Shown one piece after another: positions 6,045 to 36,369 of a stretch of 64,000 nucleotides of DNA. The first letter of the stretch is position 1. Every line of letters starts with the position of its first letter. Source of the stretch: Polyangiales bacterium (GTDB taxonomy: Bacteria; Myxococcota_A; Polyangia; Polyangiales; Polyangiaceae); contig JBBRLQ010000005.1 of assembly GCA_038231275.1 (NCBI GenBank), positions 323,645 to 387,644 of the forward strand, given 5' to 3'. The notes below the pieces were generated by a model. That model ran no database searches. It had not been told where the DNA came from and worked only from the letters and a program-made list of their open reading frames with translations. Both the position numbers and the translations under genes were made by a program.

Positions 6045-6761
6045 TCACGGACCGAGCGCGTCGAGCACCGCGCGCGCCTCGGCCTTTCGATACCCCTTGA
6101 AATCCCCGCGTGCGAACGGCTCGAGCGCGTCGCGCGCCTCGTCGTTGCGTCCGAGACGGACGAGGTCGAGGCCCCTGTTGTACCGCGCCTCCAGCGCATA
6201 CCGCCCGCGCGGGAACGCCGCGAGGTACGCGTCCCATCCCGCGACGGCCCGGGCGGGATCCTTGTCGACGAAATGGGCGCGATGGGCAACGGAGTAGAGG
6301 CGGTCCTCCACGTCGGAGGCCGCGGCGGGAGGGGGGAGGGGGCCAGCGGAGGTCGCGGTCGAGGTTTGAGTCGGCGCCGGAGTCGGGGTCGGGGTCGGAG
6401 TCGTGGTCGGGGTCGGAGTCGGGGTCGGAGTCGGGGTCGGGGTCGGAGTCGGGGTCGGGGTCGGAATCAGGGTCGGGGTCGGCGCTGAGGTCCGCGTGTT
6501 CGTCAGCGCGTCGATGGCGCGTGAGAGGCGGCCCGTCGCTGCGGCCCATGCCGTGGCCGCGAAGAAGGTCGCCGCGAGGGCGATGGCGACGTAGCCCCAG
6601 CGCGCTCGGCGTCGCCGGGTGGCGGACGCCGCGAGGAGGATGCGGGCGCGCGTGCGGGGCGCCAGGCTCGGCGCGCGCACGTCCGCGGTCGTTTCGCGCA
6701 GGGCTGTGAACGCTTCGCGGAGGTGCGCGTCGTCGTCCTGCTCGTCGTGGAGCGGCGTCAT
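6045..6761 (-). CDS. Putative anti-sigma factor: TM helix, (PT)n linker, C-terminal TPR-like domain
   Basis: Overlaps the ECF stop (ATGA). One hydrophobic segment; YLAAFPRGRYALEARY TPR-like motif. Confidence 0.7.
   Translation of the reverse strand: MTPLHDEQDDDAHLREAFTALRETTADVRAPSLAPRTRARILLAASATRRRRARWGYVAIALAATFFAATAWAAATGRLSRAIDALTNTRTSAPTPTLIPTPTPTPTPTPTPTPTPTPTTTPTPTPTPAPTQTSTATSAGPLPPPAAASDVEDRLYSVAHRAHFVDKDPARAVAGWDAYLAAFPRGRYALEARYNRGLDLVRLGRNDEARDALEPFARGDFKGYRKAEARAVLDALGP
6370..6485. repeat. Hexamer tandem repeat (GGGGTC/GGAGTC)n encoding a Pro-Thr linker
   Basis: Directly visible in the sequence. Confidence 0.9.
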
Positions 6762-7354
6762 TCGATTCCCCTCTTCGTGAGCGCGGCGCGCAGCTTCTTT
6801 TTGCCGTGAAACACGCGCGTCCGAATCGTTGCCTCCGGCGCGCCCGTGATCTGCGCCGCCTCGCCGGCCGTTCGCTCCTCGACCTCGCAGAGGACGATCG
6901 CGATGCGCTGCTCCAACGGCAGCTCGTCGAGCGCGGCGCGCAGCGCGTCGGCGAGCTCCTGACGGCGGGCCTTCGACTCCGGGCCGCTCGGCGGGGTCGA
7001 CTCGTCGCCTGCCACCGCGCTCATCGCGGCGGCGCGGCGCGCGGTGCTCCTGGCGTGGTGCCGCGCGTGGTTGGCAGCGACGCCGATCACGAAGGATCGC
7101 AGCGGCGCGTCGCCGCGATACCGCCGTGCCGCGCTCGGCAACGCGAGGAACGTCTCCTGCACCAAGTCTTCGGCCGCCGTTGCGTCGCCGACGAGCCGCC
7201 TCGCGAAGCGCCTCACTTGCTCGTGGAAGGCGTCGTAGGCCTCCCCGAGCGCCTCGACCTCGCCATGCGCGAGCCGCGCCGCGAGCCGGCCGTCGGGACC
7301 CGCCTCGACGTCGCCTTCCACAGCCTCGTGACTAACACGTACCGCCGCGTTCAC
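6758..7354 (-). CDS. ECF RNA polymerase sigma factor
   Basis: Region 2 AEDLVQETFL; region 4 LDELPLEQR...EATIRTRVFHGKKKLR. Confidence 0.92.
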   Translation of the reverse strand: MNAAVRVSHEAVEGDVEAGPDGRLAARLAHGEVEALGEAYDAFHEQVRRFARRLVGDATAAEDLVQETFLALPSAARRYRGDAPLRSFVIGVAANHARHHARSTARRAAAMSAVAGDESTPPSGPESKARRQELADALRAALDELPLEQRIAIVLCEVEERTAGEAAQITGAPEATIRTRVFHGKKKLRAALTKRGIE

Positions 7355-7416
7355 GCCAAGCGGTTCCCGCGCGCGCGCATTCCATTCAAGAGAATCTTTT
7401 CAAAGGAACGTTTCTT

Positions 7417-8523: not shown

Positions 8524-9425
8524 GGGTGCCCGCGGCGCGCCGTTTCGTTCAATCGCTCCACGGGCACGCCGAGCAGCTCGGCCTCGCGGACGACGGTGGA
8601 GAGACCCTCTTCATCGGACGCGTGGAAGAGCGCGTCGGCTGCGCCGATCCACGCGAGCGCGTCGTCGCGAGAGACCTTCCCGACGAAGCGCGCGTCGACC
8701 CCACGGCGGCGCGCGTGCTCCAGGAGACGCGCGCGCTCGGGGCCGTCGCCGACGAGGACCAGGCGCGCGCCGCGCTCGTGAGCGGCGATGTATTCGATCG
8801 CGCGATCGAAGCGCTTGCTTCGCACGAGACGCCCCACAGCGACGAAGAGCGGCGCGCCGATCTCGAGACGCCGCTGGCGAGCGCGGTCGGCCACGTCGGG
8901 GATCTCGATCGGGCTCGGGGCCACGATGGCGACCGCACGCACGAGGTCGCGTGTCGCGTCGGTCAGCCCGTCGGTGAGGCGGGCGAGCAGCGCCTCCGAC
9001 ACGAAGCGCCAGAGCGCGACGCGCGCGACGATCGCACGAACCATGCGCGCCCGTATCGGCGCCGGCAACGCGAGGAGCAGTCGCACGTCAGCCCCGTGTG
9101 AGACCCCTTCGACGCGCGCTCGCCCACCGAGCGCGATCGGGAATACCGAGGGCACGACCCAGTGGCACACGATGCGCTCCGCGTTCGCCGACGCGAGCTC
9201 TCGTCGCGCGTGGACGATCCAACGCGCGGCGCCGAACGCCCTCCACGGCGCGGCGCGCAGGCGTGCGGCCACGCCAGGCCAGCCGAACGCCCCCGTAGGG
9301 TGCGGCGCGATGACCTGGACCTCGTGCCCTTCGCGCTCCATCGCCCGGACCTCGGCGCGAACGAAATGGCCGGCCGGATCCCCTTCGCTCGCGGGGTAGC
9401 TGGTGGTGACGACGGCGACGCGCAC
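8520..9425 (-). CDS. Glycosyltransferase family 4 (GT-B)
   Basis: RVAVVTTSYP, VGRLVRSKRFD, LVGDGPER, EGLSTVVREA. Confidence 0.88.
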   Translation of the reverse strand: MRVAVVTTSYPASEGDPAGHFVRAEVRAMEREGHEVQVIAPHPTGAFGWPGVAARLRAAPWRAFGAARWIVHARRELASANAERIVCHWVVPSVFPIALGGRARVEGVSHGADVRLLLALPAPIRARMVRAIVARVALWRFVSEALLARLTDGLTDATRDLVRAVAIVAPSPIEIPDVADRARQRRLEIGAPLFVAVGRLVRSKRFDRAIEYIAAHERGARLVLVGDGPERARLLEHARRRGVDARFVGKVSRDDALAWIGAADALFHASDEEGLSTVVREAELLGVPVERLNETARRGHP

Positions 9426-9479
9426 GCCGGGAGGGTAGCCTGCTCCGCAGGCGCGGGACGGTGCTACCTTCTCCCGGCC

Positions 9480-10661
9480 GTGACCGAGTCGCTCAAGGAT
9501 GGCCGCTACGTCGTCACCCGCGCCCTCGGCGAGGGATCGCAGGGCACGACGCTCGAGGCCGTCGACAAGCGTGAAGGGCGCCTCGTCGCGATCAAGCGCT
9601 TCGAACTCAAGAGCGCGCGCAAGTGGAAGGACGTCGAGCTCGCCGAGCGCGAAGCGCGTGTCCTCGCGTCACTCTCCCACCCGCAGCTTCCAGCGTATGT
9701 CGAGCACTTCGAGGAGAACGGGACCCTCTACCTCGTGATGGAGCGCATCGAGGGGTCGAGCCTCGCCGAGTTCCGCAAGAGCGGAGGATCGTTTGGCACC
9801 GACGACGCGATCGCGCTGCTCGAGCAGGCCTCGATCATCCTCGATTATCTCCACGGGCGGGCGCCGCCCATCATTCACCGCGATTTGAAGCCCGGAAACG
9901 TGATCCGACGGCCCGACAAGAGCTTCGCGTTCGTCGATTTCGGCGCGGTGCGCGACAAGCTGCGGCTCGAGGGGGGCAGCACGATCATCGGGACGTTCGG
10001 GTACATGGCGCCCGAGCAATTCCAAGGGCGCGCGGCGCCGGCGTCGGACGTCTATGCCATCGGTGCGACCGTGCTGTGGATGCTCACCGGCGTCGAGCCG
10101 GAGGATCTTCCGCACAAGGGCCTCGCGGTCGACGTGGCGGCGTCACTCGGCGCCCAGGCGAGCCCCGACATCGTCCGTGTGCTCTCGGCGATGCTCGAGC
10201 CCGATCCGGAGAAGCGTCCGCGCCGCATCGGACCGCTCCTCGTTGGCCTGCACGCGGCGCCGGCGGCCGCGCGCCCACGGGTCACGTCGCGGCCCGCGCC
10301 CCCGCCGCCCCCGCCTGCCGCGCTGCGGCCCTCGTCTCATGAAGACGAGTTTCCCGGCAATCTCGTGCGGATCCTGAGGCGCTTCATGCCCGCGCTCTGG
10401 GTGATGAGCGCGCTCGCGTGGTGGTGGCTGCCGTTTCGCACGTCGATGAGCTTCACGATCGGCCTCGTCGTCCTCTCCATCGTCACGCGCGCGTCGCGGC
10501 CTCGGTCGCCGCGAAACAAGGAGGCGCGCCGCAATGAACGTGGCGCCCGCACGCGGGTCGCCGACCCACGCGTCCGGGTCTCCGAGCCCGATCCGCACGA
10601 GGTCGAGGCCGAAGCGGAGCGCGCCTGGCGCGAAGAAGAAGCTCGCCGCCGCGGCCCTTGA
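9480..10661 (+). CDS. Ser/Thr protein kinase with C-terminal TM helices
   Basis: LGEGSQG, VAIK, HRDLKPGN, DFG, GTFGYMAPE. GTG start chosen at 9480. Confidence 0.93.
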   Translation: MTESLKDGRYVVTRALGEGSQGTTLEAVDKREGRLVAIKRFELKSARKWKDVELAEREARVLASLSHPQLPAYVEHFEENGTLYLVMERIEGSSLAEFRKSGGSFGTDDAIALLEQASIILDYLHGRAPPIIHRDLKPGNVIRRPDKSFAFVDFGAVRDKLRLEGGSTIIGTFGYMAPEQFQGRAAPASDVYAIGATVLWMLTGVEPEDLPHKGLAVDVAASLGAQASPDIVRVLSAMLEPDPEKRPRRIGPLLVGLHAAPAAARPRVTSRPAPPPPPPAALRPSSHEDEFPGNLVRILRRFMPALWVMSALAWWWLPFRTSMSFTIGLVVLSIVTRASRPRSPRNKEARRNERGARTRVADPRVRVSEPDPHEVEAEAERAWREEEARRRGP

Positions 10662-10673: not shown

Positions 10674-11804
10674 TCACGCAGCTACCGGCAGAGTGAAGTG
10701 GAACGCCGCGCCTTTTCCGAGCTCGCTCTCTGCCCAGATTCGACCGCCGTGCGCCTGCACCGTCTTCTCGCAGATGTAGAGCCCCAGACCGAGCCCGCGC
10801 GGCGCCTCCGTGTCGAGTTGCCAGAAGCGCTCGAACAAATGGGGCAGCGCATCGGACGAAATGCCCGGCCCGTTGTCGCGAACGGTGAACTCGACTTCGT
10901 CCGCCCGCTCCACGACGTGCACGTCGACGGTCCCCTTCGCCGGGGTGAACTTCAACGCGTTGCCGAGCAGGTTCGAGAACACCTGGACGATGCGGTCGTG
11001 GTCGAATGACGCGACGAGGGGCGACGGACGGCCTTCGACGAGTAGGGACATTTTGCGATCCAAGAAAAGCGGCCCATACGCGCGCTGCACCTCGTGGAGG
11101 AGCTCGCCGACGTTGTGTGGCCGTTTGACGATGCGAAACGTGCCCGCGTCGATCCGGGTTACATCGAGCATGTCCGTCAGGAGGCGCTCCATGCGCCCTG
11201 CGGCTTGCGTGATCTCCTCGGCAGCTTGACGCGTGGACTCCTCCTTCGTCTCGTCGACGATCATCCGCGCGCAGATCACGACGACGGTCAGCGCGCCGCG
11301 GAGGTCGTGCGCCACCATTCCCGTCACGTCGTCCCGGCGGTTCCCGTCCGCCTCGGCACGGGCGAGCGCGGCCCCTGCGAGATCGAACGCCATCGCTTGC
11401 GCCACCTCCTCGCCAGCCCTCTCCGTGGCCAGGCGGGCGTCGGTGTCGTGGCGACGTGCCTCCACGCCCGCGCTCAGGTTCTCCTCCTGTCGCCTTCCCG
11501 CAGCTACAGCAGCGTCTGCGTGCTGGCGCTCACGTTGAACGAGCGCGTCCGCATCTTCGCGCTCGGCAATGGCAGAGGAGTTCGGTGACGGCGCGTCCGC
11601 GCGATCGCGCGGCAGCGAACGATCCGACGCTTCCCGAGACGCCCGCAACCGCCGGTCCGCCGCGAAGCGATCGAGCTCGATGATGTCGTCGAGCGTTCGC
11701 CGCAGCGTCGAGCGAATTCGATCGGAGTCAGCTCGCTCCTCGCCGAGTCCCGCATCGGTGCTCGCGCGTCGCGCCAGCAAGTCGCGAAGTCGATTCATGA
11801 CCAC
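10674..11804 (-). CDS. Cytoplasmic sensor histidine kinase
   Basis: H-box VAHDLRG, N-box NLLGNALKF, DNGPG, GLGLGL; no TM segment, charged N-terminal coil. Confidence 0.92.
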   Translation of the reverse strand: MVMNRLRDLLARRASTDAGLGEERADSDRIRSTLRRTLDDIIELDRFAADRRLRASREASDRSLPRDRADAPSPNSSAIAEREDADALVQRERQHADAAVAAGRRQEENLSAGVEARRHDTDARLATERAGEEVAQAMAFDLAGAALARAEADGNRRDDVTGMVAHDLRGALTVVVICARMIVDETKEESTRQAAEEITQAAGRMERLLTDMLDVTRIDAGTFRIVKRPHNVGELLHEVQRAYGPLFLDRKMSLLVEGRPSPLVASFDHDRIVQVFSNLLGNALKFTPAKGTVDVHVVERADEVEFTVRDNGPGISSDALPHLFERFWQLDTEAPRGLGLGLYICEKTVQAHGGRIWAESELGKGAAFHFTLPVAA

Positions 11805-11981
11805 CCCCCCACCGACGTTACAGGATCGGCCGGAAGAGGGGAGGGCCGCAAGGGTCTTTCGTCGGTCTCAGGGTTTGACTCGTGCGCCGACCGCTGCCCT
11901 TGTACGCATGGCGGTTCGCGGTTTCGTGCGCCCTATGGAAGGGCGAGCGCCGAAGCCAAGGAAGTGAGCCGCCGCCGACCG

Positions 11982-12678: not shown

Positions 12679-12804
12679 CCCGAAAACCCGTCACGTTGCG
12701 CGGAGAACGGCCCGCGGCAGCGTGCGTAACGGCGTACGCTTTGGCCACGGAAGACCTCCGGCGACCACGTGAACGGCCGCCCTCCGCGTGGTAAGACGCA
12801 AGAC

Positions 12805-14766
12805 ATGGACGTGACGATCGCCGGGAGAATCCTCTACATCACCGAGGACCCGAAGCTCCTCGAGGCGCAGCTGATCGGGCAAGACCTCCCGCACGCGCCG
12901 TACGCCGCGGGCGCCGGGCTCGTCTCGAACATCTCCACCGACGAGCTCACCCCCGGCTGGGTTTGTTACTACTACGACGAGACGCTCGCGCGGTATTGCC
13001 TCGTCGGCCTGCGCGGCGGCGTCGTGAAGCAGGACGCCATCAAGAACGGCGGCTTCGGCGTCATCGTGAGCGGCATCTCCAAGGGCTGCGGCAGCTCGCG
13101 CGAGACCGCGCCGTACAGCGAGCTGAAGAGCGGCGTCCAGCTCGTCATCGCCAAGAGCATCGAGAAGATCTACCGCCAGAACTCGCAGAACATCGGCCTC
13201 CTCACGAGCACCGACTTCGGTCTCATCCCGCGCATCGCGCGCGGCGAGGCGATCCCGATGAGCGAGTTCACCAAGGGGCTCGATCCGATCAGCGCGTCCA
13301 TCGTCGAGCACGGCGGCCTCTTCGCGTACAACCGCGCGCGCGTCGCCGGGAAGATCAGCCCGCCGCAGATCACGACGGCGGCGCGGCCGATGACCCTGTG
13401 CGAGAAAATCCTCGCGCGTCACGTCATCACCGACGCCAAGAGCGGCGCGCTCGGCGTGACCGCCGTGAAGCCGGGCGACGCGTTCTTCGCGCGCACCGAC
13501 GTCCGCTTCAGCCACGAGTACGTGACGCCGATGGCCGAGTCGCTCTTCGTCGCCGAGATGGGCAAAGACGCCACGGTCACCGATCCCGCGAGCGTCTTCG
13601 CGTTTCGCGACCACCTCACGTTCCTCGATCTCGTGATGCCCAAGGCCCACAAGGACATGGGCCTGAAGGAGCAGGCCGGCTCGCTCGCGACGGTGCAAGA
13701 GAGCTTCACCAAGCGCCACTCCATCAAGCTCTACGGCGAGGTGCACCGCGACGGAAAGCTCGTGGGCAGCGAAGCCATCTGCCACAACAAGGTCATCGAA
13801 GAGCTCGCGCTTCCCGGGCAGCTCGTCGCCGGCACCGACTCGCACACCTGCATGGCCGGCGCCCTCGGCTGCTTCGCATTCGGCGTCGGCTCGACCGACA
13901 TGGCCAACGCCTGGTACACGAAGGACGTCCGCGTCACGGTGCCCGAGACCGCCAAATTCGTGCTCCGCGGGAAGCTCCGCCCCGGCGTCTGCGCGAAGGA
14001 CGTCATGCTCCACATCTTGAGCCAGCCGTTCTTCAAGACCGGGCAGGGCATCGGCAAGGTGCTCGAGTTCACCGGTGACGGCGTTCGTGGCCTCTCGCTC
14101 GACGAGCGCGCCACGCTGACGAACATGGCGGTCGAGGCCGGCAGCTTCACCGGCATCATCGAGGCCGACGACGTCATCGTGGACTACCTCGTCGCGCAGC
14201 GCGGCCTCCGCGCCGACGACGTTCGCGCGCGCATCGTCAAAGCAGATCCCGACGCCACGTACGCGGCGACGTTCGAGATCGATCTCGCGTCCTTGGCCCC
14301 GATGGTGGCCACGCCCGGCGATCCTCGCAACGGCGTCCTCCTGAGCGAGCTCGGCGCCGAGGTGAAGATCGACATCGCGTACGGCGGCTCGTGCACCGGC
14401 GGCAAGAAGGCGGACATGGACATGTACGCCGAGGTCCTGCGCGCGGCCGTCGCGAAGGGCCGCAGGGTGGCGCCCGGCGTGCACCTCTACATCCAGTTCG
14501 GCTCGCAGGACATCCGCCGCTACGCGGAGGCGAAGGGGTACCTCGAGGTCTTCGCGAAGGCGGGGGCCGAGCTCGTCGACCCGTCGTGCGGCGCGTGCAT
14601 CAAGGCGGGACCCGGCGTGAGCGACCGCGCCGAGCAGGTCACCGTCAGCGCGATCAACCGCAATTTCCCGGGCAGAAGCGGCCCGGGAAAGGTGTATCTT
14701 GCAAGTCCGCTGGTCGTCGCCGCCAGCGCGATCTGCGGCAAGATCGCCGGCCCCGAAGCGATCTAG
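12805..14766 (+). CDS. Aconitase/isopropylmalate isomerase family; LeuD-like swivel domain fused N-terminal to a LeuC-like domain
   Basis: NISTDELTP, GCGSSRE (small subunit); MTLCEKIL, GTDSHT, GGSCTGG, PSCGACI, NRNFPGR (large subunit, Fe-S cysteines). Confidence 0.9.
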   Translation: MDVTIAGRILYITEDPKLLEAQLIGQDLPHAPYAAGAGLVSNISTDELTPGWVCYYYDETLARYCLVGLRGGVVKQDAIKNGGFGVIVSGISKGCGSSRETAPYSELKSGVQLVIAKSIEKIYRQNSQNIGLLTSTDFGLIPRIARGEAIPMSEFTKGLDPISASIVEHGGLFAYNRARVAGKISPPQITTAARPMTLCEKILARHVITDAKSGALGVTAVKPGDAFFARTDVRFSHEYVTPMAESLFVAEMGKDATVTDPASVFAFRDHLTFLDLVMPKAHKDMGLKEQAGSLATVQESFTKRHSIKLYGEVHRDGKLVGSEAICHNKVIEELALPGQLVAGTDSHTCMAGALGCFAFGVGSTDMANAWYTKDVRVTVPETAKFVLRGKLRPGVCAKDVMLHILSQPFFKTGQGIGKVLEFTGDGVRGLSLDERATLTNMAVEAGSFTGIIEADDVIVDYLVAQRGLRADDVRARIVKADPDATYAATFEIDLASLAPMVATPGDPRNGVLLSELGAEVKIDIAYGGSCTGGKKADMDMYAEVLRAAVAKGRRVAPGVHLYIQFGSQDIRRYAEAKGYLEVFAKAGAELVDPSCGACIKAGPGVSDRAEQVTVSAINRNFPGRSGPGKVYLASPLVVAASAICGKIAGPEAI

Positions 14767-14779: not shown

Positions 14780-16315
14780 TCACAGCGGACCGAACAGCTC
14801 GTGGTATTTCGCTGCCGCGACGGGTACGGCGTCGGCGCCGTCGTGGAAGGGGCCGTTCTGGCTGCCTGTGGACTGCTTGGTCATGGGGTAGACGACGGAC
14901 TTGGCCGCCGGTCCCACGTCGCTGCCGTCGAGGCCCTCGGCGAGCACGTCATAGGCGACGTTGTTCGCGGGGTCGGCGAAGAAGTCGTACATCAGCTGGA
15001 CGAATGCGTCGTCGTCGTTGCCGCCGTGGCCATCCATGCGCAGCGGCGGCGCCCACTCGCTGACGGCCAAGGGCTTGTGCTTCTCCCTGCCGAACGCCGC
15101 GAACGCGGCGAGGCTCGCCCGATGACCCGTGACCGCATCGTCGAACGCAGCGGTCGGCCATGCGTCGAAGAGGTTGACCATGACGCCGGTGACGGCGCGC
15201 GCGGCCGGCACGTTGAGTGTGGCGCTCGGCGGGCTGGCGGAGAGATCGACGGAGTCGACCTTGGCAAACAGCGGGTAGCTCGTCGGCGCTCCTCCGCTCG
15301 TCCCTGCCGTGTACACCTGGATGGAGCGTCCACGGTCGGTCGCCGCGAAGTGACGGCCGCTCGGTGTGGACCATCCCGTGACGACCATGCTGGCCGCCGC
15401 CATCGACCCCGTGCCTTGCACGATCGTCGGCGTGCCCGCGGCATAACTCTGATCGAACAGAGTGAGACCGACGTAGTCGACGTAGTCGGCGCCGGCGCCG
15501 TCGGGGCCGCCCGGGTACGCCGCCGCGACGACCGACGCCGGAACGTGCACGCCGCCCGCCTCCGCGTCCACGTACGTCGCGTTCCACTCGAATCTGAATT
15601 TCTGCCCGGGGACGCCGCGCGCGATGTCGACGACGCGCCGATATGCCGATTTGTACGCGGTGGCCGCGTCGGTCAGCGACGCGTACCCGGTCGTCGCGTC
15701 CAGGTTGATCGGCGCCGCGATGCTCCACGCGAAGCCCGATCCTCCCATCGCCCATCCGAGTCGAACGATCGCATCACCCTGCCCGTACTGTACGAGCCTG
15801 TTGAACCACGTCTTGAAGCTCGCGTCGGCGTTGCCGGCGTTCGTGTCTTTCAGGCCCACGTCGTTGCCGCGCGTGAGCGGCGTCGACCACAGCGCCTGGA
15901 GACCGACGAGCGACGGCGTCATCCTCGCCGGCAAACCCCACGTCGATCCGTTGCGCGTTCCGAACGCGTAATCGAGGACGGTCTGCGCTTGCCCGGGATC
16001 CGGATAGGCAATCGCGTTGAAGATTTTGCAATTGTTGCGACTGGTGCCCGTGCGCCAGGTGCCGATGTTCTTGTACCAGGTCATCGCGTCGTCGACGCTC
16101 TGCGTGCGGTAGGTGTCGTCGACGACGTTGCGCATGAGGAAGCCGGACATCCAGGTCCTGCCGACGCCGGCCTCGGCGTCCGCGCCAGCGTCGATGGCGC
16201 TGCCGCTCGCCGGATCGATCTCTCTCAGTCCGAGCACAGTGCTGCACGCGCAGAGCCACGCCAATCCGGCCGCGAGCGGAAGGGAGAGGCGGGGACGCCA
16301 GAGACGGCCGATCAC
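14780..16315 (-). CDS. GH26-like lipoprotein with degenerate active site (probable pseudoenzyme)
   Basis: Lipobox-like WLCAC. RLGWAMGG in place of RLGWEMNG; VGLTLFD in place of VGTDSYD; KPLAVSEW retained. Close paralog of 19925-21565. Confidence 0.75.
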   Translation of the reverse strand: MIGRLWRPRLSLPLAAGLAWLCACSTVLGLREIDPASGSAIDAGADAEAGVGRTWMSGFLMRNVVDDTYRTQSVDDAMTWYKNIGTWRTGTSRNNCKIFNAIAYPDPGQAQTVLDYAFGTRNGSTWGLPARMTPSLVGLQALWSTPLTRGNDVGLKDTNAGNADASFKTWFNRLVQYGQGDAIVRLGWAMGGSGFAWSIAAPINLDATTGYASLTDAATAYKSAYRRVVDIARGVPGQKFRFEWNATYVDAEAGGVHVPASVVAAAYPGGPDGAGADYVDYVGLTLFDQSYAAGTPTIVQGTGSMAAASMVVTGWSTPSGRHFAATDRGRSIQVYTAGTSGGAPTSYPLFAKVDSVDLSASPPSATLNVPAARAVTGVMVNLFDAWPTAAFDDAVTGHRASLAAFAAFGREKHKPLAVSEWAPPLRMDGHGGNDDDAFVQLMYDFFADPANNVAYDVLAEGLDGSDVGPAAKSVVYPMTKQSTGSQNGPFHDGADAVPVAAAKYHELFGPL

Positions 16316-16375
16316 CCTCCGACTATAACGCACGCGGCAGCGGGCGAGTTGGCGACCCATGTAGATGCCCTGCCC

Positions 16376-17263
16376 TCAGGGGTCGTCGATGCGCAGCATG
16401 CTTCCGAGGGTCATGTCGAAGCGGCTCTGGATCATGTTCACGATGCTGTCGACCTCCGCGTCGGTCGCCCCGAGACGCGCCATCATCGCGCGACGCGTCT
16501 CGTCCACGAGCGCTTGGCGCGCTTTGACGATCCAGCGGGCCGCCGTCGCGCGATGCACGCCGTAGATGGCTCCCACCCGATCGACGTCGAGCTTCTGCGC
16601 GAACGCATACGACAAAAGATTCCGATTCTTCGGGTCGAGGGCGAGGAGGGCGTCGGTGACCGCCGCCTTGAAGTCGGCGCGGTACACCCGCTTCAGATGC
16701 TCCAGCTCGAAGTCTCCTTCGCCTGCTGCGAGGTCGGCGAGCACCTCCGCGTCGGTCGGCGTGTCGCGCTCGGGCTTGGCGACGAGTCCCAGGACCACGC
16801 GTGACGCGACGACGCGCAACCACGCGCGGACCGAGCCGAGCCCGCGGTACTCTGCGATGCGCGGCGGCGCGCCCTCACGCGCGACGAAGATGCGCTCGCG
16901 CACCAACTGCGCCACGTCGTCGTCGGACGATTGGAGTCGCGTGGATCGGCGCACGGCGTGGAAGACCTCGCCGAAGTAGCGCCGCTCGAACGCCGCGATC
17001 GCCCGCGCGTCGCCCTCCGCGCACGCGCTGGCCACGTAGAGATCGGCGAGACGCAACGACGAGAGCGCCGCCGCGAGAGGCAGGTCCGCCGGCAACCGAA
17101 GCGCGATCCAGCGGGCGAACGCGACCTCCGCGACCGCGAGCCCTGGCCACTCGGCGCACGCATGCGCGAACGCGTCGTCGGCGGCGCGACGCCCGGCGGC
17201 ATCGAGGTCCTCACGGCGCCCCGCGGCTGCCGTCGCTTCGGTCAACGCAGACGAGAAGAGCAC
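16376..17263 (-). CDS. Myxobacterial-type ECF sigma-70 factor with N-terminal extension
   Basis: DLYVASACAEGDARAIAAFE, YRGLGSVRAWLRVVA, IYGVHRATAARW HTH. Recalled as typical of Myxococcales kinase-associated ECFs. Confidence 0.85.
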   Translation of the reverse strand: MLFSSALTEATAAAGRREDLDAAGRRAADDAFAHACAEWPGLAVAEVAFARWIALRLPADLPLAAALSSLRLADLYVASACAEGDARAIAAFERRYFGEVFHAVRRSTRLQSSDDDVAQLVRERIFVAREGAPPRIAEYRGLGSVRAWLRVVASRVVLGLVAKPERDTPTDAEVLADLAAGEGDFELEHLKRVYRADFKAAVTDALLALDPKNRNLLSYAFAQKLDVDRVGAIYGVHRATAARWIVKARQALVDETRRAMMARLGATDAEVDSIVNMIQSRFDMTLGSMLRIDDP

Positions 17264-18268
17264 TCAGAATCTCCCCGTGACATCGAGCGAAGCGCCGGCG
17301 GGGCCGACGTTGGGCGCGAAGACGAGACCCGTCCGAGAGGGGCGAGCCGGCGACACGACGAGGAGCGTCACGCCGCCGGCTGCGAGCACGAGGCCGGCGA
17401 CGAAGGCGACCGTCGATACGCGCGCAGCCTGATGCGCTGTGTCGTTTGCGGAGAGGCCGTCGGCGTTCGCGCAAGGACTGCGGGGGCAGGCGCGGTCGAC
17501 GTCCGCCTTCTTCGCCCATGCGAACGCGCCCGCCGCGATCCCGACGCCGACGCCCGTCGCACCTGCCGCCAGGCCGACGATGCCGAGCGTGTGCATCGTC
17601 GTCGACGGGCGCGCGGGCGGCGAGGACGCAGCTCTCTCCGGCGCGGCCTCTCTCACGGCCACCGGCTCCTCGGTCGCCTGCGCGAGCTCGGGTACGGTCA
17701 CGCGCGTGGAGGCATGGGCGCCCTCGACGCGTGTTCGGCTCGTCCACGCGACCCTTCCGGGCGCTCGCGCGACCACGACGTGCTCACCGGGGTCGACGGG
17801 GATCTCGACGCCCCACTCGGCGGGACCGACCTCGAGGCCGTCTCTCGTGATCGTGAGCCCGGCGACGGCGTTGTCCGCGGGAACCTCGACGACGAGGTGC
17901 AGGAGCTGGCGCTCGAGCGCCTGCGCGCGTTCGAGCGCAGTGGCGCGCCAGTCGGCGCGATGTCGCTCGTTGGCCGCCTTCGCAGCGTCCGTGAAAGTCA
18001 CCCACGCGCTCGCGGTGCGTCCCGTTCGCTCGTAGCAATCCGCGAGGTTCAGCAGCGTGCCCGCGGCAGGGTCCAGCCGTTGGCTCTCTGCGAGCTTCGG
18101 GCATGCCTCCGCGTAGCGTCCTTCGACCATCAGCTTCCGCGCTGCCTTGAACAGCGATTCCGCCGCGGCTTGCGCCTCGGCGTCGGTCGCGCGCGCCGCG
18201 GGGGCGACCGCGAGGACGGCGACGACGGCGAACGAGGCTGCCCTATTCGCGAGCGATCGTCGGCTCAT
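17264..18268 (-). CDS. Exported TPR + PEGA-like membrane protein
   Basis: Signal peptide; ACPKLAESQRLDPAAGTLLNLADCYE TPR; VDPGEHVVVARAPG; C-terminal TM segments ending GRF. ATGA overlap with the kinase stop. Confidence 0.85.
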   Translation of the reverse strand: MSRRSLANRAASFAVVAVLAVAPAARATDAEAQAAAESLFKAARKLMVEGRYAEACPKLAESQRLDPAAGTLLNLADCYERTGRTASAWVTFTDAAKAANERHRADWRATALERAQALERQLLHLVVEVPADNAVAGLTITRDGLEVGPAEWGVEIPVDPGEHVVVARAPGRVAWTSRTRVEGAHASTRVTVPELAQATEEPVAVREAAPERAASSPPARPSTTMHTLGIVGLAAGATGVGVGIAAGAFAWAKKADVDRACPRSPCANADGLSANDTAHQAARVSTVAFVAGLVLAAGGVTLLVVSPARPSRTGLVFAPNVGPAGASLDVTGRF

Positions 18269-19761
18269 CGTTCGTCCGGAATTTTGCCGCCGCCCGACGG
18301 GCCGCGGGGCAGGGTGCCGGGCGCCACGCGCCGCGGCGGACGGCGCGGATCCATCGCGGGCGCGATCATGCTCGCGTGTGGTGGCGCGAGCGTCGGCGCA
18401 GGCGGGTCGGGGGCGGCAACCTGCGGCGCCGCTGCCGCGATGGGCGGCGTCGGGGCGATCGCCGACGCCGGCGCGTCGACGACCGACGGCTCGTGGCGGG
18501 TCGACCTGTTTCGCGCGAGGGAGACGCTCAGCGCGAGGGCGAGCACGAGCGCCACTATAACCGCCGACACGAGCCGCACGTTCGGAGCGCGCTTCGGGCC
18601 TGCGTCCGCAGGCGGCTGACGAAGCGAAGACGTCGGCGACGGTTGGTCCATGACCGCGGTCACGGACGTCGCCGACGACGTCACGTGGGTCGCGGTGACG
18701 TCTCGGGGCAGTGGCGCGGGCGCCGCTGCGCCCACCCGCGCTCGGCACGCCGAGCACGACGCTGCGTGTCGCTCGACGCGCGCCAGCGCCTCACTTCCTA
18801 ACGCGCCTTCCTGCATCTCGGCGAGCACGTTGTCGTCGAGGCACGGCGTCGCCGCGTCGGAGGCCGGCGATGAGGTCACACGAAACGGCGCGAGCGCCTC
18901 CGCGAGCGCTTCGACACTGGAGAAGCGTTCGTCCGGCACCTTCGCGAGGCACTTCGCGACGACGTCGGAGAGCCCGCGAGGAACGTCCGGCCGTACGTGG
19001 TGCAGGGCCTGCGGATCGTCGCGAAGGATACGCGCGCCAATCTCGATCAGCCCCGTCCCCTGGAAGGGCGGCCGTCCTGCGAGGACCGCGTAGAGGCAAG
19101 CGCCGAGCGCCCAAACGTCGGCCCGCGCGTCGATCTCGGCTCCTCCGCGGAGCTGCTCGGGGGCCATGTAGTGGGGTGTCCCGACGAGCTCGCTCGTCTG
19201 TGTCAGCATGGGATCGCTCGCGTCCGTGGTGCGCGCGATCCCGAAGTCGAGCACCTTCACCAGCCCGTGCCCCCGCCGCTCGCGAACGATGAACAGGTTC
19301 TGCGGTTTGAGGTCGCGGTGAATGATCCCGAGGGCGTGCGCTTCGGCGACGCCCTCGCACGCCTGCGCGATGTAGTCGACCAGGACCGCAGTGGGCTTGT
19401 CCTTCGACTCGCGGGTCAGCCTCTGAAGATCCTTGCCCTCCAGCAGCTCGAGCACCAAGAACGGCGTCCCTTCGTGCTCTCCGGCGTCGAAGATGCGCGC
19501 GACGTGAGCGCTCTTCAGACGCGCGAGCGCCCGAGCCTCCCGCATCAAGCGCGCAGCCCCCGTGGCGCTCGCGAGCGACTCGTCGCGAAGGAGCTTCAGG
19601 GCGACGTTCTCGCCGAGGGTCAAGTGACGCGCAGCGACGACGATCCCCATCCCGCCGGAGCCGAGGATCTTCTCGACCCGGTACTTGCCGGCGACGACGC
19701 ATCCCGGGCGAATTCCCGACGTGATGGCGTCGCTCTCGGGTTGCGTCACGCTATCACCCAC
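18265..19761 (-). CDS. Membrane Ser/Thr kinase with an internal HxxxCxxC zinc-finger module
   Basis: LGSGGMG, VALK, HRDLKPQN, DFG, GTPHYMAPE; then HAASCSAC, a TM helix and a Pro-rich tail. Start approximate (19761 or 19749). Confidence 0.92.
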   Translation of the reverse strand: MGDSVTQPESDAITSGIRPGCVVAGKYRVEKILGSGGMGIVVAARHLTLGENVALKLLRDESLASATGAARLMREARALARLKSAHVARIFDAGEHEGTPFLVLELLEGKDLQRLTRESKDKPTAVLVDYIAQACEGVAEAHALGIIHRDLKPQNLFIVRERRGHGLVKVLDFGIARTTDASDPMLTQTSELVGTPHYMAPEQLRGGAEIDARADVWALGACLYAVLAGRPPFQGTGLIEIGARILRDDPQALHHVRPDVPRGLSDVVAKCLAKVPDERFSSVEALAEALAPFRVTSSPASDAATPCLDDNVLAEMQEGALGSEALARVERHAASCSACRARVGAAAPAPLPRDVTATHVTSSATSVTAVMDQPSPTSSLRQPPADAGPKRAPNVRLVSAVIVALVLALALSVSLARNRSTRHEPSVVDAPASAIAPTPPIAAAAPQVAAPDPPAPTLAPPHASMIAPAMDPRRPPRRVAPGTLPRGPSGGGKIPDER

Positions 19762-19828
19762 GCGCGCACAGCGTATCACGCGTCGCCGGGCGCGCATGTG
19801 CGGCGGGCACTTGAGACCGTCCCGCGTG

Positions 19829-19884
19829 AAAAAGAAAATGAATTTCTCCATCGCGATGCGACGGCGGTCCGCGAGTCCTGTCTC
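19829..19884 (+). promoter_or_regulatory. Candidate ECF-type promoter for the intact GH26-like gene
   Basis: A/T tract 19829-19846, GCGAC (19858-19862), 17-nt spacer, GTCTC (19880-19884), about 40 nt before the ATG. Confidence 0.35.
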
Positions 19885-19924
19885 TGGAAAACGTGGGCAT
19901 CGGTCGCCCATGCGGAGATAGACC

Positions 19925-21565
19925 ATGAAGATCCCTCGCCACGGCTTTCGATTGGGTACCTCCCTGACCCTCCTCGGCACGCTCGCGGCCCCGGTGGGCG
20001 GTACCGGCTCGTGCAATTTCTCCGTCGATGGCACGATCAACGAGGAGGACGGAGGCGTCGCGCTCGACGGGTCCGTCCTGGCAACGGACGGCGAGGCGCC
20101 CCGCGACGCGGCGGTCGACGCCGGCGGCGAGCTGGATGCCGGGTCCTCCACGGACGCGCCCCTGTCCCCCGACGCCGGATCCGTGCACACGTGGATGTCG
20201 GGCTTTCTCATGAGCGCGATCGTGGACGACGACTACGTCGCGCCGAGCGTCGACAATGCGAAGGACTGGTACCAAAACATCGGCACCTGGCGTACCGGCT
20301 CGGGCCGAAACAACTGCACCGTGTTCAACGCGAACTCGTACCCCGACCCCGGCCAGGCACAGACGATCCTCGACTACAATTTCGGAACCCACACCGCCAG
20401 CGGCTGGGGGCCGCCCGCGCGCTTCGTGCCTTCGTCCGTCGGGCTTCAACCCGTGTGGTCCACCTCGCTGACGCGCGGCGACAACTACGGCCTCAAGGAC
20501 ACGAACTCGGGCAACGCCGATCCGAATTTCCGGACCTGGTTCACGAAGCTCGTGAGCTACGGCCAGGGGGACGCCATCATTCGCCTCGGCTGGGAAATGA
20601 ACGGCACGTGGTTCGTATGGGGGATCGGCGCGCCGATCAATACGGACAAGACCACCGGCTACGGCTCGGTCGACGGCGCCGCCGCCGCGTACAAATCGGC
20701 GTTCCGTCACGTCGTCGATATCGCGAGGAGCGTGCCGGGGCAGAACTTTCGATTCGAGTGGAACTCCTACTTCCTCGACTCGAACTACGGTGGCGTCAGA
20801 ATTCCCGCGTCGTCCGTGGCCGCCGCGTACCCGGGGGGACCCGACGCGCATGGGCGCGACTACGTCGACTTCGTCGGGACGGATTCGTACGACGAGAGCT
20901 ACACGAGCGGAACGCCCACGGTGGTCCAGGGCAACGGGTCGATGGCATCAGGGAGCAAGGTCGTCACCGGTTGGACGGGCCCGAGCGGTCGCCACTTCAC
21001 GGGCGCCGACGTGGGTAAGTCCATTCAGGTCTACACCGGCGGCACCAACGGCGGCGCCGCCACCAACTACCCGCTCTACGCCAAGATCGTGTCGGTCGAC
21101 GCGTCTTCGAGCCCACCGACCGCGACCCTCAACGCCCCCGCACGGCGCGCGGTCTCGGGCGCGGCGATCAATCTCTTCGACGCGTGGCCGAGCGCGGTGT
21201 TCACGAACCCGACAAACGGCATCTCGCCGAGCCTCGCCGCGTTCGCCGCGTTCGGGCGATCCAAAGGCAAGCCGCTCGGCATCAGCGAATGGGGGCCGAT
21301 GCTGCGGATGGACGGGCACGGAGGCAACGACGATCCCGCATTCATCCAAGTGATGTACGACTTCTTCGCCGACCCGGCGAACGACGTCGCCTACGAGACG
21401 CTGTTCCAGGGGATCGACGGAAAGGCCGTAGGACCGAGCGCGCAGTCGATCGTGTACCCGCTCCTGATGCAGAACGCGGGGAGCAGGAACGGCCCCTTCC
21501 ACGACGGGACCGAGCCCCTGCCACTGTCCGTCGCCAAGTACCGACAGCTGTTCGGACGGCTCTAG
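19925..21565 (+). CDS. GH26-like (clan GH-A) exported glycoside hydrolase, catalytic residues intact
   Basis: RLGWEMNGTWFVW (acid/base Glu), FRFEWN, YPG..DYVDFVGTDSYD, KPLGISEWG (nucleophile Glu); N-terminal signal-like segment with Cys. Confidence 0.8.
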   Translation: MKIPRHGFRLGTSLTLLGTLAAPVGGTGSCNFSVDGTINEEDGGVALDGSVLATDGEAPRDAAVDAGGELDAGSSTDAPLSPDAGSVHTWMSGFLMSAIVDDDYVAPSVDNAKDWYQNIGTWRTGSGRNNCTVFNANSYPDPGQAQTILDYNFGTHTASGWGPPARFVPSSVGLQPVWSTSLTRGDNYGLKDTNSGNADPNFRTWFTKLVSYGQGDAIIRLGWEMNGTWFVWGIGAPINTDKTTGYGSVDGAAAAYKSAFRHVVDIARSVPGQNFRFEWNSYFLDSNYGGVRIPASSVAAAYPGGPDAHGRDYVDFVGTDSYDESYTSGTPTVVQGNGSMASGSKVVTGWTGPSGRHFTGADVGKSIQVYTGGTNGGAATNYPLYAKIVSVDASSSPPTATLNAPARRAVSGAAINLFDAWPSAVFTNPTNGISPSLAAFAAFGRSKGKPLGISEWGPMLRMDGHGGNDDPAFIQVMYDFFADPANDVAYETLFQGIDGKAVGPSAQSIVYPLLMQNAGSRNGPFHDGTEPLPLSVAKYRQLFGRL

Positions 21566-21631: not shown

Positions 21632-22765
21632 TCAGTGGTGCGTCGCGCCGCCCGGCATCGCGCTCGGTGCGGGGGCGCCGCTCGGCATGCCGGGGGGCCG
21701 CTTCGGTCCTTTGCCGCGCGGCTTGGTGCCGGCGAGGCCGCTCACGACGTCGCCCGGCTCGATCTCGAATGGGAAGGGCCAGTCTTTGATGCGTCCGCTC
21801 GGCGATCCGGTGCCCAGGCGCAGCCGCTCGCCCTCGAGCCGCCCCGCGAGCGCCTCGCGCTGCTCCGGCGTGAGGATCGATACGAGCTGCGCGAGGAAGA
21901 GGACCTCGCGATCCATCGGCACGCGCGCCTTCGCGGCGGGCGGACCGAACGCGTCGAGCTTCTTGGCGTCGAACTTCGGCGAGTCGAAGGCCGCGACGAG
22001 CGTGTCGAATCGTTTGCGTGCGTCGGCGCGCCCGTCCGACTCGGGCGGCAGCTTCGCGAGGATGGGATCGAGCTTCGCGGCCTGCGCCGCGTCGAGATCG
22101 AGCTCCCTCTTGAGGCGATCGGGTCGGCCCTTGGCGCGCTCGGTGATGGCTTCGCTGCCCGCGTCGCCGGCGGCGCGCACGAAATCCTGCTCGCGCTCGC
22201 GCGCCTTCTTCTGCGCGGCGGCGCCGAGCGCCTTGCGGTTCTCGGGCGTCAGCGCGGTGAAGAGAGCGTTCATCGCGACGACCTCCTTGTCGAGCCGCGT
22301 CTGCATGCTCCGCTGGAGGGCGACGACGCGTGGAGTGAGCTTCTTGTCGTCGACGGCGCCGGCGCGAACGGCCGCCACGATGTCGTCGTGGAGCTCCTTG
22401 ATCTCGCCGCGCGGCGCGTCGTCTTCGTCAGCGTCGAGCTGATCGGCGAGCTTCTCCACGATCGCCTTGTGCGCTTCGTCGAGCTCCAGCCCTTGCGCTT
22501 CGTCGAGGAAGAGCGCGGCTGGTCCCGCGCGGAAATGGAGCGACATCGGCGCCGGCGGCGTCGAGCCGGACCCCATCGCGCTCGCGGCGGCGCTGCCCAT
22601 GTCCGCGAGGGAGGAAGGCGCGGCGCTCACCGTCGCGCTCGGGGCCGCGCTGACGACCGGTGCGGGGCCGCTGCTCTTCTTGTCGTCACAGCCGGCGATG
22701 AGCGCCGGGAGGGCGGGGAGAGCAGCGAGGGCGAAGGCGAGCGAGATCAGGCGTCGCGATTTCAT
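21632..22765 (-). CDS. Spy/CpxP-like helical lipoprotein
   Basis: Lipobox LIAGC; LTPEN, LDAAQ and LTPEQ motifs. Confidence 0.65.
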   Translation of the reverse strand: MKSRRLISLAFALAALPALPALIAGCDDKKSSGPAPVVSAAPSATVSAAPSSLADMGSAAASAMGSGSTPPAPMSLHFRAGPAALFLDEAQGLELDEAHKAIVEKLADQLDADEDDAPRGEIKELHDDIVAAVRAGAVDDKKLTPRVVALQRSMQTRLDKEVVAMNALFTALTPENRKALGAAAQKKAREREQDFVRAAGDAGSEAITERAKGRPDRLKRELDLDAAQAAKLDPILAKLPPESDGRADARKRFDTLVAAFDSPKFDAKKLDAFGPPAAKARVPMDREVLFLAQLVSILTPEQREALAGRLEGERLRLGTGSPSGRIKDWPFPFEIEPGDVVSGLAGTKPRGKGPKRPPGMPSGAPAPSAMPGGATHH

Positions 22766-22824
22766 CGCGCACGACGGTCCCACAGGATCGCGCGCTCCGA
22801 AAGGGTGAAGATTTGCGGGCCGCG

Positions 22825-24129
22825 TCAGTGCTCACACGCCGCGATCGGCCCCCGGTGGGGCCACTTCCAGCTGCAGTGCGAGGCCGGTCCCACCGGCGAC
22901 GTCCGAACGGGCTCGAACGTGCTGTGATCGTTGGTGCATCCCCAATGTCCGTTGAAGGCGAGGGTGAGCCGCGCGTCGTCGGTGAGCGGCCGATCGACCT
23001 CGCCGAGGTTCAGCGGGCGGCTCTTCACGTCGGGCACGAGGTAGCTGGTCCCCTGGCCGTTGTGGGGGTTCAGGTGGATCGTGATCGGCCCCGCGTCGAT
23101 TTGCGCGTGCCCCCACGCGCCGGGCCAGAACTCGTGCGCGCCGCGCTCGACGTACACGACGACGTGCTTGTACCCCGCGGCGTCGAGCCAGAACTCTGCC
23201 TGGTTGTCGTCGTACGCCGGCCGCGCCGCGTCGTCGAAGAAGTTCCCCAGCGACGCGGTCCCGTTGTGGCTGCCCTTCACCGTGACCATGCAGCTCTTGC
23301 ACGACGCCGGCGCCGCGGCGGGCACGTGGAACGTGATCGACTTTCCGTGGATCAAGTAGAGGAGCTGGGCGACGCGCTGCTCGGTTCGGTCGAACCAGAC
23401 CTGCACGCTCGTCCAATCCCCCTCGTGATCGCCGTACGAGCCGAGGCCGAGCACCGTGATGTCCTGGTTGTTGAACGCGAAGAACTGCCAGTACTCGATC
23501 TTGTACGCGGGGTGGCCGTTCACGGTGTCCGTCGCGACGTGGGCGGAGAGGCCCGTCGCGTTGGACTTGGCCTCCGCGAACGAGACCCCGGCGTAGCGAT
23601 CGTTCTCGACGTTCAGGCAGAGGGTGCTCTTCGCCATCGAGACGGCGAAGCTCGCGTCCTTCTCGCACGTGTAGAGCGACTCCGGCGGGTCGAGGTGGCG
23701 ATCGGCCGTGCGCCCGCAGCCGGCGATCGGATCGCCCGCGCCGTTGCCTGGGCTGGCGAGCCGTTTCAGCTGCGCGTGGCGGAGCTCGTCGACGGGATCG
23801 GCGGGGCGGCGATCCTCGTCGTGGCCGTTGTCGCTCGAGAACTTGTAGTAGGGGCGGTAGCGACGAATCAGATCTTCTTCGAGCGCGTCGTCGATCCCGT
23901 CGCCGTCGCGGTCGGCGGTGGTGGCGTCGCCCGAGGCGGCCGCGACGAGGCGCGCGAGGTCGGCGCGTCGGTTGGCGGGCTCGGGATCGGCCTCGCGATC
24001 GCGCGCGTCGCCGCCGCTGCTCAGATCCGACTCGACGGGCGCGGGAGCCGTGGGCGCGCTGCCGCACGCCGTCGCGAGGCCGAGGCCCAGGGCGGGGACC
24101 AAGAAGGAGAGGACGGAGCGCGCATTCAT
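22825..24129 (-). CDS. Lipoprotein with HEGDW motif (Vps62/NPP1-like)
   Basis: Lipobox LATAC; DRDGDGIDD; IEYWQFFAFN...DHEGDW; VYVERGAHEFW; FNGHWG. Confidence 0.65.
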   Translation of the reverse strand: MNARSVLSFLVPALGLGLATACGSAPTAPAPVESDLSSGGDARDREADPEPANRRADLARLVAAASGDATTADRDGDGIDDALEEDLIRRYRPYYKFSSDNGHDEDRRPADPVDELRHAQLKRLASPGNGAGDPIAGCGRTADRHLDPPESLYTCEKDASFAVSMAKSTLCLNVENDRYAGVSFAEAKSNATGLSAHVATDTVNGHPAYKIEYWQFFAFNNQDITVLGLGSYGDHEGDWTSVQVWFDRTEQRVAQLLYLIHGKSITFHVPAAAPASCKSCMVTVKGSHNGTASLGNFFDDAARPAYDDNQAEFWLDAAGYKHVVVYVERGAHEFWPGAWGHAQIDAGPITIHLNPHNGQGTSYLVPDVKSRPLNLGEVDRPLTDDARLTLAFNGHWGCTNDHSTFEPVRTSPVGPASHCSWKWPHRGPIAACEH

Positions 24130-36177: not shown

Positions 36178-36369
36178 ATGAGCACCAAAACCGTCATCAA
36201 CAGCTGGGACTGGGACATCCGCGTTCGCGAGCGCAACCTGAAGAGCGGCGCGCTCACGGACAAGGACGTCGAGAAGCACATCGCGGCCCTCCCGGATCTC
36301 GAAGGGCAGACCGATCCGGTCACCCTCGCGCAGCCCGCCATCGCCGGCCGCGAGGATTCGTCGTCCTAG
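36178..36369 (+). CDS. Small hypothetical protein (63 aa)
   Basis: AGAGGA RBS; high-GC codon usage; DIRVRERNLKSGALT...LPD. Confidence 0.75.
   Translation: MSTKTVINSWDWDIRVRERNLKSGALTDKDVEKHIAALPDLEGQTDPVTLAQPAIAGREDSSS

Follow-up and report, generated by a model that had tools for sequence, protein, structure and literature searches.

Gene organization of the block

We analyzed a 64-kb stretch of the genome of a soil myxobacterium, a Polyangiales bacterium (assembly GCA_038231275.1, contig JBBRLQ010000005.1; this whole stretch is called the window below, and coordinates are counted from its first nucleotide) and in particular a block of five genes at 14780-21565 that a first-pass annotation, made from the letters of the DNA alone, had proposed to be a glycan-sensing system. 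The outer ends of the block are two similar genes, here called L (left) and R (right), whose predicted products are lipoproteins related to glycoside hydrolase (GH) family 26; between them lie genes for a sigma factor, an exported membrane protein with a tetratricopeptide repeat (TPR)-like part, and a Hanks-type protein kinase. The features of the block are as follows.

14780..16360, minus strand: L, GH26-like lipoprotein and very probable pseudoenzyme, 526 amino acids (aa); last gene of the operon
15056..15058, minus strand: codon of L Glu435, the retained nucleophile position (motif SEW); coordinates by arithmetic from the gene start
15131..15424, minus strand: subfamily-private insert in L, about residues 313-410
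15749..15751, minus strand: GCG codon of L Ala204, at the position of the family's acid/base Glu
16376..17263, minus strand: sigma-70 family factor of the TIGR03001 type, 295 aa, by profile match
17264..18268, minus strand: TPR-like/beta-sandwich exported membrane protein, 334 aa
18265..19797, minus strand: Hanks-type Ser/Thr kinase, 510 aa if the ATG at 19797 is the start, which is uncertain
19798..19924: intergenic spacer of about 127 bp from which the kinase operon and R diverge; contains an AT-rich stretch
19925..21565, plus strand: R, GH26-like lipoprotein with a complete catalytic set, 546 aa, monocistronic
20594..20596, plus strand: GAA codon of R Glu224, the acid/base position, aligned to CtLic26A Glu109
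20921..21214, plus strand: private insert in R, about residues 333-430
21287..21289, plus strand: codon of R Glu455, the nucleophile position, aligned to CtLic26A Glu222; coordinates by arithmetic

In the direction of transcription the minus-strand operon runs kinase, TPR/beta-sandwich protein, sigma factor and L, and R is transcribed divergently from it. The run had been described as tightly coupled with L in last place, and the junctions bear this out: the kinase stop and the TPR protein start share an ATGA overlap, the stop of the latter abuts the sigma factor start as TGAGTG with 0 nt between them, and the spacer from the sigma factor stop to the L start is 15 nt. Because L is the last gene and follows the sigma gene so closely, its expression is expected to follow that of the operon, and coupling of L to the sigma operon is probable. 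The block is bounded on both sides by convergent, unrelated genes, namely an aconitase-family gene on the plus strand that ends at 14766, its stop 13 nt from that of L, and a gene for an LTXXQ/Spy-like protein (21635-22831, minus strand) that converges on R.

Relationship of L and R to glycoside hydrolase family 26

L and R are identical at 312 of 480 aligned residues (65%, BLASTP), and their DNAs are 71.7% similar over 1379 nt, a similarity that covers the coding part of the mature proteins and excludes the flanks. There is no further copy of the gene in the window. Direct comparison with the Pfam GH26 model (PF02156) gives R a score of 12.9 bits (E 0.071), below the cut-off of 20.2, and L has no match to this model in the Pfam scan. 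A word-indexed search, in which 8000 candidates were scored, gave five matches: L, R, the live-type metagenome protein P0003 (533 aa, 54% identical) and two distant GH26 proteins. An exhaustive search gave 1270 relatives at E<=1e-3, three of which, L and two fragments, lie at E<=1e-30; close relatives are very rare in the data searched. The set that was scanned with Pfam contains 152 proteins, made up of 147 relatives (P0008-P0154) with L, R, P0003, P0004 and P0005, and the R-like fragments P0006 and P0007 were excluded from the relatives' alignments. The Pfam GH26 model is matched by 134 of the 152 scanned proteins (97/110 plus 37/42).

A profile of the family matches, over its whole length, the GH26 lichenase domain of Clostridium thermocellum CelH in the PDB (CtLic26A, 2bv9; E 9.5e-25), and its further PDB matches are GH26 mannanases and a beta-1,3-xylanase. 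Alignment of the L/R subfamily with the relatives by hhalign has a probability of 100% (E 3.5e-48). In the family-profile alignment the Glu of the motif RLGWE falls on CtLic26A Glu109 and the Glu of PEWG on Glu222, which we take to be the acid/base of GH26, after strand 4, and its nucleophile, after strand 7, respectively. The assignment of both paralogs to GH26 and clan GH-A made in the first-pass annotation thus stands on profile evidence, and on the profiles the predicted fold is of the GH-A type; by the same evidence L and R belong to a large and divergent GH26-like clade, and R is predicted to be a working retaining glycanase with a beta-glycan substrate.

One relative lies in a different setting. 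The sole confirmed locus of a scan of genome contigs (see below) is a gene in a metagenome-assembled genome of the actinobacterial order Solirubrobacterales whose product is 32% identical, and at this locus (L001, 5753-8695) the GH26-like gene stands directly behind a LytR-CpsA-Psr gene. This is a single case, and we take it as a hint that the wider GH26-like clade may act on cell-envelope glycopolymers and not on plant mannans.

Loss of the active site in L

The motifs and codons that had first drawn attention to the pair are all present as described: R reads RLGWEMNGTWF, GTDSYD and SEW, with GAA at 20594-20596, and L reads RLGWAMGGSGF, GLTLFD and SEW, with GCG at 15749-15751. Of the 110 aligned proteins, 107 have Glu at the acid/base position and three do not, namely L (Ala204), P0084 (Arg) and the truncated P0133; the nucleophile position is Glu in all 110, including L (Glu435) and R (Glu455). 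Thus, of the two paralogs only L has lost the acid/base Glu, and R keeps every catalytic position that is conserved in the family.

We measured the extent of the loss in 39 alignment columns in which conservation among the 107 distant relatives is 85% or more. Deviations confined to a single lineage number five in L, none in R and three in P0003, the last all conservative; the changes found only in L are, in R numbering, E224A, W229G, D320T, Y322F and F494A, and the consensus is kept by every live-type relative whose sequence is readable at the positions concerned. L retains 28 of the 39 conserved positions. The direct comparison of 5/39 in L with 0/39 in R gives p=0.055 by Fisher's test. When each protein is compared with its own background rate of change, R's 0/39 is a depletion (p=0.026), whereas L's 5/39 is what its background rate predicts, with no depletion. 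Since these columns change in L at its background rate, constraint on its catalytic core has lapsed.

Solved structures offer two parallels to the substitution in L. The PDB matches include a GH26 Glu-to-Ala mutant with bound oligosaccharide (7xs3, 'E243A-X3X4X'). In addition, the entries 8xvi_R and 8xvj_R contain a GH26 lichenase fusion domain in which the acid/base residue is replaced by Ala (LRPLHAANG, where 2bv9 has LRPLHEANG); the substitution is the same as that of L, here in a crystallised, folded domain of receptor structures.

L is not a decaying gene. It is an intact, full-length open reading frame with a lipobox-type pattern match, as reported in the first pass. The ratio of nonsynonymous to synonymous change (dN/dS, omega) between L and R is 0.24 by NG86 and 0.22 by LWL85; dS is about 1 and is saturated under maximum likelihood, so these omega values are rough, upper-range estimates, and the argument about selection is therefore carried by a relative-rate test. 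With P0003 as outgroup, 53 changes are unique to L and 44 to R (p=0.36), and the two counts are balanced in all four regions of the protein, the private insert described below included. Relaxed selection throughout L, which the first-pass annotation had named as evidence that would overturn its idea, is therefore not what we find: L evolves no faster overall than R, as a maintained pseudoenzyme would. We conclude that L is very probably a selected, non-hydrolytic GH26-like lipoprotein. The duplication that gave rise to the pair is old. P0006, a fragment that comes from another organism, shares 78% identity with R and 65% with L, and at informative sites it agrees with R only at 33 and with L only at 12; since P0006 is closer to R than to L, the duplication predates a speciation. 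Even if the sensor reading developed below is wrong, L is a clean natural case in GH26 of active-site-specific decay under purifying selection on the whole protein.

Lipid anchor, tether and private insert

Lipobox-type matches, found with a regular expression after the manner of PROSITE PS51257, lie at residues 29-39 of L (Cys39) and 20-30 of R (Cys30), and also in P0003 and P0006. The tether, which reaches from the lipid-anchor Cys to the domain, measures 29 aa in L as against 58 aa in R, 55 aa in P0003 and 73 aa in P0006. A tether as short as that of L would hold the protein close to a partner in the membrane. The tethers are acidic and rich in Gly, Ala and Ser.

Distant relatives align to R in two stretches, 170-332 and 430-500, and because they match only on either side of it we regard R residues of about 333-430 as an insert private to the L/R subfamily. 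It is about 100 aa long, separates the DxYD strand from the nucleophile strand, and has no counterpart in other GH26-like proteins. In sliding windows it is the most constrained segment of L and R (omega of about 0.09-0.10). The insert is apparently beta-rich; it has no match among PDB sequences at E<=10, and its look-alikes in the atlas score at most 0.79, which is uninformative.

The kinase, the TPR/beta-sandwich protein and the sigma factor

The three genes between L and R had been called a kinase, a TPR/PEGA protein and an ECF (extracytoplasmic function) sigma factor, and these identifications hold, that of the second as a TPR/PEGA-like protein. The kinase has a Pkinase domain (E 2e-49) in which, numbered on the 510-aa form, the VALK65, HRD160, DFG184 and APE212 motifs are all present. 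Behind it lies an HxxxCxxC motif (HAASCSAC at residue 344), where the Pfam zf-HC2 model scores 18.4 bits, below its cut-off of 22.2, over about 35 aligned aa that are followed by low-complexity sequence. There is one transmembrane helix and then an outer tail of about 80 aa that is rich in Pro and Ala, of low complexity and without a folded sensor domain. A reading of the block as a defence system was tried and rejected: PADLOC gave only generic kinase matches for this protein (PD-T4-6, mad6, PglW) and none for the other four.

The TPR/beta-sandwich protein belongs to a family of at least 1560 members in Myxococcota, and its outer domain has a mean column identity of 46% over 71 sequences. Pfam finds no PEGA match in it, and TPR_2 scores 18.4 bits, below the cut-off of 27. 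Its AlphaFold model has a pLDDT of 82.8, with ten-residue block means of 92-98 over residues 31-200, which contain both outer domains, and predicts five TPR-like helices followed by a beta-sandwich, a membrane hairpin of two helices and, at the end, a beta-hairpin. The best fold match of the model, and the only one at or below 1e-3, is a chain of carboxypeptidase D (3mn8, E 6.6e-4); the matched part appears to be the transthyretin-like domain, for which the isolated domain 5aq0_B is a weaker match. TPR designs and TPR proteins are among the fold matches at E of about 2e-3, and in the atlas clusters of look-alikes 32-57% of the members carry Pfam PEGA. On the model, the fold matches and the atlas clusters together, 'TPR/PEGA' is a fair label for this protein. 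A weak fold match to a chain of the RtkS-PpkA complex (E 4.6e-3) is noted as a lead only, and a comparison of the protein with the plasmid collection gave no match. Proteins of the family end (residues 314-333 here) in a conserved beta-hairpin that follows the two membrane helices and has W or F as its terminal, aromatic residue.

The sigma factor scores 221.2 bits with TIGR03001 (Myxococcales family 1), for which the cut-off is 154.6, and the match (E 1.3e-65) spans positions 1-243 of the 244 in the model. Relatives at E<=1e-10 number 106 and come from Polyangiaceae, Kofleriaceae, Sandaracinus and others; P0276 is an ortholog with 71% identity, and the family has in common an N-terminal extension of about 70 aa. 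As a single sequence the sigma factor has no match in the PDB; the family profile matches ECF factors of known structure, among them AlgU-like proteins and sigma-E, at E 6e-7 to 7e-4. ECF43 factors are marked by loss of the acidic DAED residues of sigma2.2, with a phosphorylatable Ser or Thr instead (PMC8999054; published systems are cited here and below from excerpts of the papers). At the DAED position the present protein reads S-D-D-D, and the family consensus is ..D-E. The acidic residues are retained, and therefore this factor does not carry the ECF43 hallmark of phosphorylation dependence.

A proposed sensing pathway and its alternatives

How might these parts work together? We propose that a GH26-like lipoprotein gene was duplicated long ago, which left R as the enzyme and turned L into a protein that would no longer hydrolyse glycan and would probably still bind it. 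L, on its short lipid tether, would bind a polysaccharide or fragments of one and would signal to the TPR/beta-sandwich protein anchored in the membrane, to the kinase through its Pro-rich outer tail, or to both. The kinase, with its motif resembling the zinc finger of zinc-binding anti-sigma (ZAS) proteins, would then release or activate the sigma factor, which would in turn increase transcription both of the operon that encodes it and of R, the divergent gene. Because the kinase has no folded outer domain, a signal must reach it by way of co-encoded exported proteins, and L is the one component whose descent suggests a ligand, with the predicted live enzyme for that ligand encoded nearby. 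We rank a role of L as the input, or co-sensor, of a pathway controlling R first among the explanations on these grounds and on the precedents of TagQ/TagR-PpkA, PknS-EcfK, RsgI6-GH10 and ECF52 (see below), and give it a rough probability of 0.38. The complete chain, sketched in outline by the first-pass annotation, a four-part trans-envelope pathway from the dead GH26 protein as ligand-binding receptor through a TPR/PEGA adaptor and a Hanks kinase with a ZAS-like motif to a TIGR03001 sigma factor that induces the live paralog, is a more doubtful proposal; in it we infer glycan binding by L, the contacts between the proteins, the direction of signalling and the dependence of R on the sigma factor.

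A number of observations weigh against the co-sensor role. In the searches made, L-type proteins occur in this lineage only, and since the TPR/beta-sandwich family is huge and L-like proteins are so restricted, the TPR module must work elsewhere without an L-like partner. The scan of genome contigs with the alignment of L, R and P0003 confirmed one locus among 136 pattern matches, and none of the 152 scanned GH26-like proteins is fused to a kinase or anti-sigma domain. The last place in a probably autoregulated operon suits an output as well as an input. In the divergent region a sigma-70-like pair of hexamers faces R from 19811 to 19839 (one found where 0.3 are expected), so that R may have a promoter of its own, and no shared ECF-type motif was recognised there by an inverted-repeat search and a reading of both strands at this one locus. 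The 64 kb contain no other glycan-utilisation genes, be they further GHs, TonB receptors or sugar uptake genes. Finally, the (beta/alpha)8 barrel of L and R is predicted from homology, on profiles only.

Several of these points suit another explanation, that the module senses some other cue, from the envelope or from prey, and that L is its output, a tethered, non-catalytic glycan-binding helper that possibly acts with R. Effector genes often ride in ECF-type operons, and L, as last gene 15 nt behind the sigma gene, would be expressed with the operon like any of them; the occurrence of the large, conserved TPR/beta-sandwich family without L-like proteins suggests that the module has its own means of sensing, and the lack of any fusion of GH26 with a signalling domain among the 152 proteins fits as well. 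This explanation must, however, account for a kinase with no folded outer domain and for a conserved TPR domain that looks like an adaptor and not like a ligand-specific receptor, which leaves the component that confers specificity still to be supplied. The tether of L, half the length of those of the live enzymes, also fits a partner near the membrane better than the capture of distant substrate. Neither the look of the TPR domain nor the tether is a strong argument, and we consider L as output somewhat unlikely.

L might instead work on R, as a pseudoenzyme that activates, inhibits or localises it, with the place of L behind the sigma gene setting only the time of its expression. The inactive beta-amylase BAM9, which binds and activates the alpha-amylase AMY3, is a precedent, though its two proteins are of different families; both L and R are lipoproteins, and the private insert of about 100 aa that they have in common is their most constrained segment, yet their unequal tethers do not suggest a fixed heterodimer, and the idea seems to us quite improbable. 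A catalytic role for L is slightly less probable still. Retaining glycosidases without an acid/base do exist, myrosinase being an example, and L keeps the nucleophile Glu435 and 28 of the 39 conserved positions under purifying selection; it could thus be an enzyme of altered mechanism or substrate, for example a transglycosylase, or one that uses an external or substrate-borne acid/base or an activated leaving group. The loss in L is multiple, however, since the Tyr beside the nucleophile (Y322F), Asp320, Trp229 and Phe494 are changed in L only; there is no Asp or Glu near the lost position in its motif, and the background-rate change of its conserved columns indicates that constraint on the catalytic core is relaxed.

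The co-sensor role for L is attractive because the module then carries a built-in clue to its signal in the form of a disabled, conserved copy of the enzyme encoded next door. Polyangiaceae-type myxobacteria such as Sorangium have hundreds of Hanks kinases and about 100 sigma factors (PMC3696898), and a published survey of ECF factors, as excerpted, says almost nothing on the myxobacterial groups (PMC7826278). If the co-sensor role is true, it gives a directly testable class of ligand for one module of a family that has 1560 or more, and this would be the first signal assigned to the hugely expanded kinase/sigma modules of Polyangiaceae. As it stands, the locus is a sound single-locus lead whose interpretation is partly supported.

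Gene neighbourhood

The neighbourhood of the block is dense in signalling genes: within 8 kb of it lie a canonical ECF sigma gene, a second Hanks kinase and a histidine kinase (6761-7399, minus strand; 9102-10658, plus strand; 10677-11867, minus strand). Farther away, a gene for a DegP-like trypsin/PDZ protease (36242-37942, plus strand) is followed directly by another ECF sigma gene (38002-38856, plus strand), and the two look like an envelope-stress pair. Of the two genes that flank the block, the LTXXQ/Spy-CpxP-like periplasmic chaperone gene at 21635-22831 encodes 399 aa, unusually long for its family, and the aconitase-family gene (12730-14766, plus strand) joins, in a single open reading frame, a small-subunit-like (swivel) domain N-terminal to a large-subunit domain. 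Hexamer tandem repeats with GAGTCG, CGGAGT or CCGACT units occur at 6368-6482, 30851-30931 and 54051-54143, and judging from the repeat units they probably encode acidic linkers of Asp, Ser and Pro. Neither the block nor the rest of the window has a match in Rfam.

Comparison with known systems

A dead GH lipoprotein coupled to a kinase and a sigma factor is not described in the literature that we searched, which was mostly without subscription journals, so that this is no proof of absence. Several known systems resemble the block in part. Chitinase-like proteins such as CHI3L1, and BAM9, have like L lost catalytic residues from a hydrolase fold, and they serve in binding or regulation, as L would; they are eukaryotic, belong to other GH families and have no link to a bacterial kinase-sigma operon.

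Closer to the present genes are the kinase-associated ECF factors (ECF43 with EcfP/PknT, EcfK/PknS, ECF210 and ECF267), in which, as here, the sigma gene adjoins that of a transmembrane Ser/Thr kinase. PknS phosphorylates EcfK (PMC13147305). ECF210 is found in Sorangium, Sandaracinus and Chondromyces, and the neighbourhood of ECF267 in Sorangium and Chondromyces contains a putative regulator with TPRs as well as kinases (PMC7826278). ECF43 factors differ in that they lack the acidic DAED, whereas the present sigma factor keeps acidic residues. The TPR protein of ECF267, compared by its excerpted description, is FecR-like and lies at +1, whereas that of the block lies upstream and has no FecR match, and in the excerpts used none of ECF43, ECF210 and ECF267 is described with a GH-like partner.

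[quoted passage not shown] This is the same three-layer layout that we propose for L, the TPR/PEGA-like protein and the kinase; the sequences, however, are unrelated, the output of the P. aeruginosa system is phosphorylation of Fha1 and T6SS assembly with no sigma factor, and no FHA or T6SS genes adjoin the block.

The ECF52 proteins of Actinobacteria, for example SCO4117, contain an ECF domain, a zinc finger, a transmembrane segment, a Pro-rich stretch and a carbohydrate-binding domain (PMC5826349). These elements are mirrored here by the sigma factor, by the HxxxCxxC motif, transmembrane helix and Pro/Ala tail of the kinase, and by the GH26-like L, whose binding role would complete the series. 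In ECF52 they form one polypeptide without a kinase, whereas in the block they are spread over four genes, one of them for an active-looking Hanks kinase.

The most informative precedent is RsgI6 of C. thermocellum, whose GH10 sensing module is 57% identical to the xylanase Xyn10D and has very low activity with binding kept; sigma-I6 activates xylanase genes and is autoregulated (PMC4711584). In RsgI6 a GH paralog with hardly any activity is the outer sensor of a sigma system that induces active paralogs, and we propose a role of this kind for L. The differences are those of construction. The GH module of RsgI6 is fused to an anti-sigma factor in a Gram-positive cell and signals by RsgI proteolysis and sigma-I, whereas the block has a separate diderm lipoprotein of the GH26 type, a Hanks kinase, a TPR/beta-sandwich protein and a TIGR03001 sigma factor, and domain scans found no RsgI or sigma-I domains in its five proteins. 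The statement in the first-pass annotation that it knew of no described system with this architecture therefore holds, in the literature searched, for the wiring of a separate lipoprotein, a Hanks kinase and a myxobacterial sigma factor; it does not hold for the idea of a weak GH paralog as the sensor of a sigma factor, which RsgI6-GH10 and Xyn10D already represent. If the proposal is true, the block would be a new kinase-based form of polysaccharide sensing in diderms that was reached independently of clostridial RsgI, and the principle that a dead enzyme senses for a live one would have evolved separately in Gram-positive and Gram-negative bacteria.

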